Shown here: one piece after another, positions 2-16,956 of the stretch
How positions within the stretch are numbered: the stretch's first letter is position 1
Layout of the letters: every line of letters begins with the position of its first letter
Notes under the pieces: model-generated
Seen by the model: only the letters and a program-made list of their open reading frames with translations
The model's database searches: none
What the model was told of the DNA's origin: nothing
Translations under genes and position numbers: made by a program
IMG/VR virus record: IMGVR_UViG_3300045988_103067
Strand: one strand, 5' to 3'
Source: a virus
Taxonomy: Duplodnaviria; Heunggongvirae; Uroviricota; Caudoviricetes
DNA length: 16,956 nt

Positions 2-1057
2 CTTGAAAGCACGGAGTTTTATCCTGGAAATGTCCATTCAGCTATTAGTTCATACTTTTCATTAATAGATATTAATAATTATGATCGAGAAGTCAAATCA
101 TTAATACATGTTTCTATAGGATATTGCATCTTTTTAAAGAGTGCATGTTACTATAAAGAACTCGTCGCATTTTCTCGGATGCTTTATTCTAATATTTCTC
201 ATTTGGATATTCTTGATAAATTTAGGGCTGCGTATTTTTTGGCTACAAGTTTAAGAATGATTTATGAGGTTGAACAAAGTGTTGAATTTATTGAGCCTTT
301 AAGTGATGAGTTCGAGGCAAAAGAGTTTTGTCAAAAGGAATATTATTTTAAAATGCTTGATAATATTATGATGGCATGCTCTGAATATAATGATGAAAAA
401 GCACGAAAATACGCAATAAAATTAAAAAAGATAGCTCCAAAGTCTTCTAGTTATTATATCAATGCTGAAGTTCATTTGGCTGACGAATTGTCTCATGGTA
501 AAAGGGTTAATAAGCTTATTTCTCTCGAGAAAAAGTCCCGAGCTGCTGGGTATAACACGCTGGCTAATAATATTAGCATTAAACTTCATTATTTGTTTTC
601 TGGTTCATCTTTCAAATATATTGATAATGCCATAAAAAATGAAGGGGGAGTGTATACTAAGGCCAGGGCGTTACTTGTTAAGTATGAAGAGTTGGTACGT
701 TGCGGAGAGTTTGAAAAAATTGATGCGGAGGGGGTGAGGGAATTAAAGGCCGTTTATGATTATTTGTTCTTGCAGCGATTAGATGAGCTTTTTAACAGAT
801 GTACCGATGTGTTATGGCAGCTTATGAAAGCGTATCGGGATGTTAATGGCTTATACTACTTATTTAAGCGTGGTTCTGTAATTTGGCGTGTAACCTCATC
901 TTATGATAAAGAGTTAGAATATGCTAAGGAGTTGAATGAGCAACAGTTTGATATCAGTGGAGGAGGTGATGATATGAAATATTTATCAATCAGACTGAGT
1001 TTTTTGGCACTAAAGGTGGAGCGAGATAAGTGTCTGATTGATGCTCCAACATTGTAA
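2..1057 (+). CDS. Hypothetical protein, 5'-truncated by the window edge (352 codons visible); AT-rich cargo gene at the cos-proximal old/tin-type locus
   Basis: The frame of the listed ORF 179..1057 stays open back to position 2 when translated by hand, so the gene starts upstream of the window. Strongly AT-rich compared with the adjacent phage genes. The visible protein is rich in K/E/L/Y and looks helical; I do not recognise a family. Confidence 0.6.
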   Translation, partial: LESTEFYPGNVHSAISSYFSLIDINNYDREVKSLIHVSIGYCIFLKSACYYKELVAFSRMLYSNISHLDILDKFRAAYFLATSLRMIYEVEQSVEFIEPLSDEFEAKEFCQKEYYFKMLDNIMMACSEYNDEKARKYAIKLKKIAPKSSSYYINAEVHLADELSHGKRVNKLISLEKKSRAAGYNTLANNISIKLHYLFSGSSFKYIDNAIKNEGGVYTKARALLVKYEELVRCGEFEKIDAEGVRELKAVYDYLFLQRLDELFNRCTDVLWQLMKAYRDVNGLYYLFKRGSVIWRVTSSYDKELEYAKELNEQQFDISGGGDDMKYLSIRLSFLALKVERDKCLIDAPTL

Positions 1058-10109: not shown

Positions 10110-10554
10110 GTTTAAGCGTTTTGAAGACCGGCTGACCGGACTGATTGAGTCGCTGTCACCGTCAGGGCGTCGGCGACTGAGTGCAGAACTGGCGAAACGT
10201 CTGCGGCAGAGTCAGCAGCGCCGGGTGATGGCACAGAAAGCCCCGGACGGCACACCCTATGCGCCACGCCAGCAGCAGAGCGCCAGAAAAAAGACCGGTC
10301 GTGTTAAGCGAAAAATGTTTGCGAAACTTATCACCAGTCGTTTTTTGCATATCCGCGCCAGCCCGGAACAGGCATCAATGGAATTTTACGGCGGGAAGTC
10401 ACCGAAAATCGCCAGCGTGCATCAGTTTGGTCTGTCGGAAGAAACCCGGAAAGACGGTAAGAAAATTGATTATCCGGCGCGTCCTCTGCTCGGCTTTACC
10501 GGTGAGGATGTGCAGATGATTGAAGAGATTATTCTGACTCACCTCGACCGTTAG
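10102..10554 (+). CDS. S: Tail completion protein
   Basis: 150 aa, the length of P2 gpS; overlaps the end of R. Confidence 0.85.
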   Translation: MNEFKRFEDRLTGLIESLSPSGRRRLSAELAKRLRQSQQRRVMAQKAPDGTPYAPRQQQSARKKTGRVKRKMFAKLITSRFLHIRASPEQASMEFYGGKSPKIASVHQFGLSEETRKDGKKIDYPARPLLGFTGEDVQMIEEIILTHLDR

Positions 10555-15299: not shown

Positions 15300-15827
15300 A
15301 TGCAGCATTTAAAAAATATTACGGCGGGTAATCCAAAAACGGTTGAACAATATCAATTGACAAAGGGCTTTGATGTTGTCTGGTTTTTTTCAGAAGATGG
15401 TAAGAACTGGTACGAAGAACAAAAGTATTTTGCTGATGACACGATAAAAATAGCGTACGACAAAGATAATATTATCCGCTATGTGGAAAAGGATGTGACA
15501 GCTATCAGACCGGATGGATTAAGTGTGGTTGAAGTGGCGGATATTACTGCTAACCGACGGACGGACATTTCAGGGAACTGGATGTTTAAGGATGGCAAAG
15601 TGATTAAACGCATTTATACGGCAGAGGAATTGCAGCAGCAGGCAGAAAACCGGAAAGCTAGACTTCTTGCAGATGCTGAATCCGTGATTTTGCCGCTGGA
15701 GCGCGCTGTCAGGTTGAACATGGCAACAGAGGAGGAGCGCACACGGCTGGAGGCTTGGGAACGCTACAGCGTTGTGGTCAGTCGTGTGGATCCTGCAAAT
15801 CCTGAATGGCCGGAAATGCCGCAATAA
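15300..15827 (+). CDS. G: Tail fibre assembly chaperone
   Basis: 175 aa, the length of P2 gpG; directly downstream of H. The conserved C-terminus ...[14 protein letters not shown] is typical of P2-type tail fibre assembly proteins. Confidence 0.85.
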
Positions 15828-15861
15828 GTTGTATAAGCTCTGGTGTGAGATTACATATCTA

Positions 15862-15912
15862 TGGCACAGAGTAAAGCCTAATCTGACAGTCCGCTCTGTG
15901 CCAAGAGCGGAC
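15862..15912. repeat. Two overlapping, mutually exclusive inverted repeats just downstream of G
   Basis: TGGCACAGAG (15862-15871) pairs with CTCTGTGCCA (15894-15903), a 10-bp stem. GTCCGCTCT (15889-15897) pairs with AGAGCGGAC (15904-15912), a 9-bp stem with a 6-nt loop. The arms overlap, so only one can form at a time. Neither is followed by a T tract. Confidence 0.5.
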
Positions 15913-16320
15913 GTTACTACTACTCGACCTAAAGTAAAGTAATTGTACTCATTAAATAGTGGTAATTGGGTCTGGTGCTTAATCGAACGAAATCTCATGT
16001 TAGGCGAAAAAAACGTCTGAAAAATCGATTAACACATACACCTGTGTACTATGGCCGTTATTCAATTTAAAAGGAACCATTTCCGATATGATTCACTGTC
16101 CATAATGTTTTGATTTATTAAAAAAGAGCCTTAGAGTGTGAAACCATTACGTTGAGTGGCGAACACCATTAATAAATTCTGCTTATACTTACAGCATATA
16201 TTATGTTCACGTCATATAACCATGGCAAATAAGATATTGCACATCAAGCATGATTATGATAGTGATTACAAAAATGAAGAATCTTAGATAAAGGATTAGT
16301 AAGTGGTTACATATAATTCA

Positions 16321-16956
16321 ATGTTGTTACCCCCCCCTAAATCTTGGGACGAATTTGAGGATATGTGCAAAAGTTCATTCCAACTGCGATGGTCCAATCC
16401 TAATCTGAACAGACATGGACGGTCAGGGCAGCGGCAGGATGGAGTTGATGTATATGGTGATGACTCTCTTGGGCGTTTCGTTGGAATTCAGTGTAAAAAT
16501 ACAGTATCAGGAATCAGTACGGCGACAATCGATGATGAATTACTCAAGGCTGAAAAATTTCGCCCAAAAATTACGGTTCTTTACATCGCTACGACAGCGC
16601 CCAGGGATGTTAGCATTCAGCGCTATGTAAGAACACTCAATGATGCCAGACAATTAAAAGGCCTGTTTCCTGTCGATGTGGTTTTCTGGGAGGATATTAG
16701 CTTTGATTTAAGCAAAGACCCAGCTGTACTCAAAATGTACTACCCGCAAATGTTCGAACGACACCAACCGACGAGGGAAGAATTTTTGCGCAAGAGAGAT
16801 ATCTCAAATTTGTCGACATTGTTGAATGTTATTGATTTTCATTCAACAATAGACCATTTGCAGTGGGGCGCAAAATACATTCATTCATTAATTATTGAAG
16901 AATACGATAATATTTTGAACATTTTAAACTCACCTGTTTTTCAACTGAATGATACA
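16321..16956 (+). CDS. Mrr-like (PD-(D/E)xK / PD-QxK) restriction-endonuclease-fold protein, 3'-truncated by the window edge; candidate anti-phage cargo at the Z/fun-type locus
   Basis: This ORF is missing from the supplied track because it has no stop inside the window. By hand, the frame is open from ATG 16321 (in-frame TAA at 16315) to the last base, 212 codons. The N-terminus reads ...WDEFEDMCKSSFQLRW...GRSGQRQDGVDVYG...GRFVGIQCKN, which fits the W-EFE / G-x-Q-x-D-G-h-D / h-Q-x-K pattern of Mrr-type nuclease domains. Strongly AT-rich. A TATAAT hexamer at 16312-16317 sits only 4 nt from the ATG, so the exact start is uncertain. Confidence 0.6.
   Translation, partial: MLLPPPKSWDEFEDMCKSSFQLRWSNPNLNRHGRSGQRQDGVDVYGDDSLGRFVGIQCKNTVSGISTATIDDELLKAEKFRPKITVLYIATTAPRDVSIQRYVRTLNDARQLKGLFPVDVVFWEDISFDLSKDPAVLKMYYPQMFERHQPTREEFLRKRDISNLSTLLNVIDFHSTIDHLQWGAKYIHSLIIEEYDNILNILNSPVFQLNDT

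Follow-up and report, generated by a model that had tools for sequence, protein, structure and literature searches.

GeneA of P2-like prophages: a candidate one-gene anti-phage cassette with a predicted Mrr-like nuclease head and a C-terminal domain also found on other effector types

Introduction

Candidate defense genes are common in prophage hotspots, and phage P2 itself carries fun(Z), annotated as blocking the growth of T5, on the minus strand between its late genes G and FI. The subject of this work is a different gene from the same slot, which we call geneA. It begins near the end of a stretch of viral DNA of 16,956 nucleotides (record IMGVR_UViG_3300045988_103067; "the window" below means this whole stretch), which is the late region of a P2-like prophage, and it encodes a protein of 311 amino acid residues (aa). 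We think that geneA is, by a modest balance of probability, a self-contained one-gene anti-phage protein that probably acts by abortive infection and is carried as moron cargo in the G-FI slot. If geneA protects, a compact one-gene system would be added to the arsenal of the P2 prophage.

Fun(Z) is, like geneA, non-essential lysogenic-conversion cargo of the G-FI slot, but it has 528 aa and is encoded on the opposite strand; no sequence similarity was found between the geneA protein and Fun(Z) (AAD03288; BLASTP E 0.26), and a tblastn search of 50,697 phage records with geneA returned no P2-type phage. The Mrr-type and type IV enzymes EcoKMrr, MspJI, and AspBHI, as well as the Mrr_cat protein AF1548, have their catalytic domain at the C terminus, whereas that of geneA is N-terminal; in addition, geneA lacks a recognizable DNA-reading domain, its acidic partner domain is common to non-nuclease effectors, and the Pfam Mrr_cat model for these enzymes does not reach it. 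Avs4 and other STAND (AVAST) proteins have an N-terminal Mrr-like head, and the geneA-type head also tops STAND-type proteins, but geneA itself has neither a nucleoside triphosphatase (NTPase) domain nor a repeat sensor and consists, within its 311 aa, of two domains, with a putative helical sensor part of 155 residues. Evangelion Eva01 and KpSwz are single genes on mobile elements, each with an N-terminal effector and a C-terminal region that has no known domains and is needed for defense, and the C-terminal region of KpSwz is reported to sense a phage protein (bioRxiv 10.64898/2026.06.25.731849). These two resemble geneA in architecture, in that one polypeptide combines an N-terminal effector with a C-terminal region free of known domains; their effector is a DUF4062/TIR-like NADase, whereas the geneA head is a predicted nuclease. 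Two TIR-headed proteins of similar length, P0134 and P0138, have a C-terminal domain homologous to that of geneA over its full length (E 1e-29 to 1e-15) and lie in integrase-bearing islands, but their head is a CAP12/Pycsar-type TIR domain (PF10137).

Position and start of geneA

Coordinates below are those of the window unless they are preceded by L001, the corresponding locus in NZ_CP025916 (window position = L001 position + 6827). The features at the start of the gene are as follows.

15300-15827, + strand: P2 gene G, tail fiber assembly, with which the conserved late genes end ahead of the variable slot (from the list of open reading frames (ORFs) and the annotation in NZ_CP025916, which is 99.8% identical)
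16292-16295, + strand: Shine-Dalgarno sequence AGGA, 7 nt ahead of a GTG start, read from the sequence and invariant in four aligned loci
16303-16956, + strand: geneA, first 218 of 311 codons, cut at the window edge (full gene, 311 aa, L001 9476-10411, + strand, in the G-FI interval of NZ_CP025916)

A sequence-only reading of the window had ended the conserved late module at the G stop codon (15827), which agrees with the annotation of ORF 15300-15827 as tail fiber assembly, and had opened the next frame at ATG 16321. That frame is indeed open to the window edge, but it starts at GTG 16303 rather than at the ATG. Two stop codons lie upstream of this GTG, the same start is used in RefSeq, and the homologues begin with M-x-T in alignment with it, M1 and T3 being (nearly) invariant; we take GTG 16303 as the true start because the Shine-Dalgarno sequence, the alignment of the homologues, and the RefSeq start agree. 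With the corrected start, the AT-rich non-coding stretch after G, previously put at ~490 bp, measures 475 bp, and the GC content is 0.32-0.37 at 15850-16300 versus 0.44-0.57 in the late genes. The gene continues for 279 bp past the window, as had been anticipated, and is intact in 13 complete E. coli genomes, where it encodes 311 aa and is not broken by stops.

Predicted nuclease domain

The N-terminal half of the protein carries the motifs on which the Mrr-like assignment had been based.

16303-16758, + strand: predicted N-terminal Mrr-like PD-(D/E)xK nuclease domain, residues 1-~152
16357-16359, + strand: codon of E19, acidic and invariant, located on helix 1 (residues 15-29 of the model)
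16447-16449, + strand: codon of D49, invariant, the putative metal-binding Asp, directly ahead of strand 50-53
16489-16497, + strand: codons of Q63, C64, and K65, which lie on strand 59-65 and supply the invariant QxK to the Mrr-type motif D...QxK

The motif G-I-Q-C-K had been read exactly, and the one before it is G-Q-R-Q-D-G-V-D-V-Y-G, not G-x-Q-x-D as first written. Residues G42, Q43, Q45, G47, D49, G61, Q63, C64, and K65 were invariant in 31 relatives with identities down to 29%, and for this reason the motifs are not ascribed to chance. The residues invariant in both alignment A1 (31 relatives) and alignment A2 (30 relatives) include, besides these, W15, E19, W30, G39, R40, E79, D102, Q106, and R116. 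An AlphaFold2 model of geneA built on 30 relatives had a mean predicted local distance difference test score (pLDDT) of 89.8. In this model the head shows the alpha-beta-beta-beta-alpha-beta core of the PD-(D/E)xK fold, and E19, D49, and Q63-x-K65 lie on the expected elements, the classical placement for the fold. Structural comparison of the head model gave the matches below (PDB entry, protein, score), with AF1548, MspJI, and AspBHI among the closest folds.

1y88, AF1548, 11.9
4f0p, MspJI, 10.3
4oc8, AspBHI, 10.2
4xqk, LlaBIII, 10.1
2ewf, N.BspD6I, 9.5
2fok, FokI, 9.4
8dgf, Avs4, 8.9

Foldseek agreed (probability 1.00 for MspJI and 0.98 for Avs4), and a viral structure library returned proteins named restriction endonuclease or Mrr domain-containing. 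Weak matches below the threshold were obtained with Mrr_cat for 6 of the 31 relatives and with Mrr_cat_2 for 7 of them (best 4e-4 and 2e-3, respectively), and one distant relative, L070, passed the Pfam cut-off (22.1 bits versus 21). On the basis of a predicted fold and a motif that are both present and a Pfam model that does not recognize the protein, the head is filed as a putative divergent member of the Mrr-like branch; the proposed Mrr-type fold is thus borne out by the predicted fold, the motif, and the borderline matches of relatives, and not by the Mrr_cat model, which misses geneA.

A search of 5.8 billion proteins yielded 173 relatives of geneA. Full-length relatives of ~311 aa occur in Serratia, Atlantibacter, Leclercia, Pantoea, Vibrio, Chromohalobacter, Pseudomonas, and Desulfonema, and many more relatives match over the first ~150 residues only, with about 50% identity and other C termini. 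All are named hypothetical except for a few with the automatic UniRef labels "restriction endonuclease" or "Mrr domain-containing"; in PHROGs, geneA matches only the unannotated family phrog_8991, no Pfam, PADLOC, or NCBIfam model matches it, and a profile of the whole family found nothing significant in the PDB sequence set. With 36-44% identity over ~145 residues, close relatives of the head form the N terminus of proteins of 900 to >1,900 residues. Some of these giants give weak STAND NTPase or NACHT matches, one of them also having strong HEAT repeats, and others give strong matches to TPR, GreA/B-C, and PIN (PF20698). The head is also joined to at least two other small C-terminal domains, which were considered as diverged copies of the geneA C-terminal domain and rejected as such (hhalign probability <5%). 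Among individual proteins, the geneA-type head is N-terminal in L054, L059, and L070 (about 1,280-1,420 aa) and in L041, L044, and L048 (about 1,040-1,490 aa), a set made up of TPR-GreA/B-C-PIN giants and STAND-type NTPases; the STAND-type protein with HEAT repeats also has a faint match to Avs2.

C-terminal domain and its partner heads

The rest of the protein forms a second domain, which begins in the window.

16765-16956, + strand: start of the C-terminal helical domain, residues ~155-311, up to residue 218 in the window

In the model, this C-domain is helical with two short hairpins. It is acidic: its isoelectric point (pI) is 5.4 in geneA, the median for the family is 5.7, and 26 of 32 members have a pI below 7. 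In a set of 1.84 billion cluster representatives, a profile of the domain matched 550 proteins at E ≤ 1e-3, of which 267 reached E ≤ 1e-10, and only 16 of the best 146 of the 550 relatives had a geneA-type head. To class the heads, those of at least 90 residues (111 of the 146 best relatives) were clustered by BLAST, and one to five members per cluster were scanned against Pfam. One cluster held 84 of the 111 heads, and its five scanned members all matched the CAP12/Pycsar TIR family PF10137, the assignment of all 84 as TIR being based on the clustering and these five scans. Twelve heads were of the predicted nuclease type, three formed one cluster without an assigned type, and the singletons include a SEFIR/TIR_2 head (PADLOC bSEFIR, 4e-37), a PD-T4-6-like Ser/Thr kinase, and a CHAT protease. 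TIR, SEFIR, kinase, and CHAT heads are effector types of known defense systems, and two-way shuffling of effector and partner domain is a pattern of conflict systems. The C-domain was collinear from end to end in 32 members with different heads, with D15, F62, D66, and F103 (domain numbering) invariant, and geneA belongs to this family by its full-length match and by its R-x-R-D, F-H-L-Y-D, W, Y, F, and Y-x-E-I-D positions. The islands in which two TIR-headed members sit also encode integrases, a caspase-like peptidase, and nucleases. As judged from sequence, the C-domain is an undescribed module that is coupled to other effector heads. At least five kinds of effector are involved, and the cue of the domain would explain several hundred unannotated proteins together.

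The resemblance of the head to the modification-dependent enzymes MspJI and AspBHI raises the question of whether geneA is itself a type IV modification-dependent restriction endonuclease, in which the C-domain would read modified bases and the head would cut phage DNA without abortive infection. The D...QxK variant is typical of Mrr, and geneA is a stand-alone predicted nuclease with no methyltransferase nearby, both of which suit such an enzyme. We nevertheless consider it unlikely: the order of domains is reversed relative to Mrr and MspJI, the C-domain is acidic and shows similarity neither to readers of the winged-helix or SRA kind nor to anything in PDB or Pfam, and the heads on which it mostly occurs (TIR, and singly SEFIR, kinase, and CHAT) have no need to be placed on DNA. 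Because the partner heads act on nicotinamide adenine dinucleotide (NAD) or on proteins and because the domain is acidic, the C-domain would be expected to sense a cue or drive assembly rather than to read DNA, and the same two properties make a nuclease that is triggered by infection, and is probably abortive, likelier in our view than a classical type IV enzyme.

For such an infection-triggered protein we infer that the N-terminal 150 residues would be a divergent Mrr-type PD-(D/E)xK endonuclease serving as the effector, with E19, D49, Q63, and K65 as the proposed catalytic residues, and that the C-terminal acidic helical domain of ~155 residues would be a regulatory or sensor module that holds the nuclease inactive until an infection cue. 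The cue would act by binding of a phage component or by induced oligomerization, and the released nuclease would then cut DNA (of the phage, the host, or both), so that phage production stops. A bolder proposal, which we put forward only tentatively and regard as rather less probable, is that the C-domain is a new and widespread infection-sensing module that recognizes a phage component directly and licenses any head fused to it, in which case geneA and its relatives, at least 550 in number, would be compact single-chain immune receptors without an NTPase. If that sensing role is true, the domain would be a small sensor that is swappable between heads.

Genomic contexts and autonomy of geneA

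The sequence-only reading had likened geneA to the first gene of an uncharacterized defense system, any partners of which would lie beyond the window. In 17 loci with full-length geneA homologues no neighboring gene recurred. The homologue is a lone insertion flanked by regulator genes of the LacI and LysR families in S. marcescens, directly follows KwaA-KwaB (Kiwa) in S. ureilytica, lies in Vibrio in an island with AlpA, RadC, DUF2787, and transposases, and is found in an integrase island in Pseudomonas. In Leclercia it is on a 93-kb plasmid, where it adjoins the Rep gene and is near a ParE toxin, in Pantoea it has a DndB-like gene as its neighbor and lies where a P2/186-like prophage ends, on the ogr side, and in Chromohalobacter it lies two genes from an Mrr_cat protein. 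At the last locus (L101 9027-11249), after the homologue come a 292-aa protein, which neither Pfam nor PADLOC recognizes, and then the 418-aa Mrr_cat protein, the whole forming a small nuclease-rich island. The G-FI interval of NZ_CP025916 holds the following after geneA.

L001 10689-10865, - strand: small hydrophobic ORF, 58 aa
L001 11196-12062 (window ~18023-18889), + strand: geneB, 288 aa
L001 12548 (start): FI, tail sheath gene, the next gene after the G-FI cargo

A system of three genes, in which geneA would work only together with the small membrane ORF and the HEPN/zinc-ribbon protein encoded by geneB, might be suspected from their shared position between G and FI in E. coli prophages and from the similar numbers of contigs on which their protein clusters occur. 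The comparisons make this very improbable. The other non-E. coli loci examined have no relative of geneB inside a range of 8 kb. Another 15 E. coli genomes possess the small ORF and geneB but lack geneA, in strain B19 these two come after other genes, and homology breaks between the geneA and geneB cassettes at L001 ~10500-10530. On this homology evidence, the small ORF and geneB are a separate cassette starting at L001 ~10500. The idea that geneA opens a larger system is therefore not upheld, since the next gene (HEPN) is an independent cassette and no neighbor recurs across the 17 loci; geneA is most likely a complete one-gene unit.

Evidence for and against a defense role

The slot, the predicted fold, the motif, and the domain partners all support geneA as a candidate anti-phage gene, as had been proposed. 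Some features of the family would also suit a gene with no anti-phage function, whether it stabilizes mobile elements as a nuclease toxin or an addiction module, serves as a weapon against other elements, plasmids included, or is a passenger in decay: the plasmid copy adjoins a replication gene and is near the ParE toxin, some of the sites are not defense islands, and the ratio of nonsynonymous to synonymous substitution rates (dN/dS) is rather high, at 0.3-0.4. We judge this improbable, because in different genera the ORF keeps its full 311 aa and its predicted catalytic residues do not vary, so that it is not decaying, no antitoxin-like partner is conserved, the domain partners are the effector types of known anti-phage systems, and the gene occupies the P2 slot of an anti-T5 gene. 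Measured against the Serratia copies, the dN/dS of geneA was 0.31-0.41, with 0.22-0.26 for the head and 0.34-0.68 for the C-domain (two comparisons only), and the higher value of the C-domain in these two comparisons fits a faster-evolving sensor.

Several results count against geneA as a self-contained defense protein. No model in PADLOC-DB v2.0.0 (5,027 models) matched it, so that PADLOC run on the full protein assigned it to no known or candidate system, and the C-domains of 32 diverse members gave no PADLOC match of note. Neither Mrr_cat (PF04471) nor Mrr_cat_2 (PF13156) matched geneA at E ≤ 1. The structure is a prediction whose arrangement of domains is not settled (predicted template modeling score 0.52), and a single-sequence AlphaFold2 model of the C-domain was too poor for use (pLDDT 57). 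Searches of Pfam and PDB sequences with the C-domain returned no fold or ligand for it, which leaves architecture alone as the source of its proposed sensor role. A scan for consensus promoters upstream of geneA found no site on the + strand; a weak candidate, TTCACG-18-TAAGAT at about 16210-16239, was picked by eye and is unconfirmed. Some contexts, such as that between the regulator genes in S. marcescens, are not defense islands. Finally, the literature searched (by accessions, by peptide strings, and in the DefensePredictor supplements) contained no mention of geneA or of its C-domain and no experiment on it.

Mobility of the geneA cassette

Comparison with P2 and with the Serratia loci defined the borders of the mobile unit.

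15828-15917, + strand: post-G segment, the left border of the variable slot, common to P2 and about 800 E. coli prophages
15862-15871/15894-15903: hairpin 1, 10-bp stem and 22-nt loop (inverted-repeat search)
15889-15897/15904-15912: hairpin 2, 9-bp stem and 6-nt loop (inverted-repeat search)
15893-16302, + strand: AT-rich non-coding leader of the geneA cassette, which moves along with the gene and accompanies it both in E. coli prophages and on Serratia chromosomes

Alignment with P2 (AF063097) and OU784750 diverges past about 15917. The two hairpins are perfect, overlap within 15862-15912 just after G, and are conserved in P2. From window ~15882-15893 on, the leader is 84% identical to the Serratia loci. 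Between the E. coli and Serratia copies, the ORF shows 89-90% DNA identity, the ~410 nt upstream of it 84%, and ~90-120 nt downstream are also common. Since the flanks and the ORF are shared in this way, the mobile unit is a cassette of ~1.4 kb with its left end at window ~15882-15893. The segment at ~15893-15917 is common to P2 phages without geneA and to Serratia chromosomal geneA loci without P2, and it may be the recombination junction that admits cargo to the slot.

Extra selective constraint on the leader was considered and ruled out. Third codon positions are 85-86% identical between E. coli and Serratia, which the 84% of the leader equals, so that common descent accounts for its identity and no added constraint is called for. 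The sole ORF in the leader, of 43 aa (16156-16287), was likewise rejected as coding, because the Serratia copies have indels in it that are not multiples of three. With the frame of its one ORF broken and with no known RNA found in an Rfam scan, the leader is taken to be non-coding.

Occupants of the G-FI slot

Of 5,426 complete E. coli genomes, 13 contain the 1,129 bases after G with an identity of 97-99.8%, and about 800 more match the first ~90 bases only. At the other end of the slot, the last ~220 bp ahead of FI are conserved in about 1,000 genomes, and in P2 this stretch contains the annotated activator site and the start point of the F operon. When the locus was extended to FI, the cargo proved to be neither fun(Z) nor a structural gene. 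A second P2 isolate has two unrelated genes in the slot, and in E. coli strain B19 the small ORF and geneB come after genes for DUF2971, DUF4236, and S1-peptidase proteins. Because different genes are present in each P2-like element examined, G-FI is a real variable cargo site; the earlier statement that this position holds Z/fun in P2 and is variable in its relatives holds good. The 13 complete genomes with geneA are mostly from human stool isolates according to their records. They include strains named ETEC-2265, B7A, and TW10722, which we take to be enterotoxigenic E. coli (ETEC), which suggests that ETEC lineages are where the geneA prophage variant mainly occurs. In P2-like prophages, the G-FI (fun/Z) slot is a mosaic of independent cassettes, and it is less surveyed than old/tin, the hotspot of P2 that was examined in PMC9122126.

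The protein encoded by geneB is of the HEPN type, with a match to the PADLOC candidate PDC-S64 over residues 1-139 (4e-21) and weaker matches to HEC-08 and PDC-S19. In 30 relatives, R119, N120, Q123, and H124 (the Rx4H motif) and three CxxC pairs are invariant. To go by these motifs, geneB looks like an independent single-gene ribonuclease defense candidate with C-terminal zinc ribbons. The 58-aa hydrophobic ORF is conserved at 98% along with geneB in B19, where geneA is absent, and its role may be that of a geneB partner or of a small membrane toxin.

Other variable sites in the prophages

Outside the conserved late module, an ORF of 292 aa at 179-1057 (+ strand) adjoins the portal gene Q (1374-2408, - strand). 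Matched by no Pfam or PADLOC model, it may be further cargo at another variable site of the prophage. The related prophage of strain WS3294A has an extra gene of 261 aa (L002 3129-3914, - strand) between the virion morphogenesis gene and the baseplate gene V. This gene is absent from the NZ_CP025916 locus and from the window, which suggests that it marks another insertion point in the late operon.

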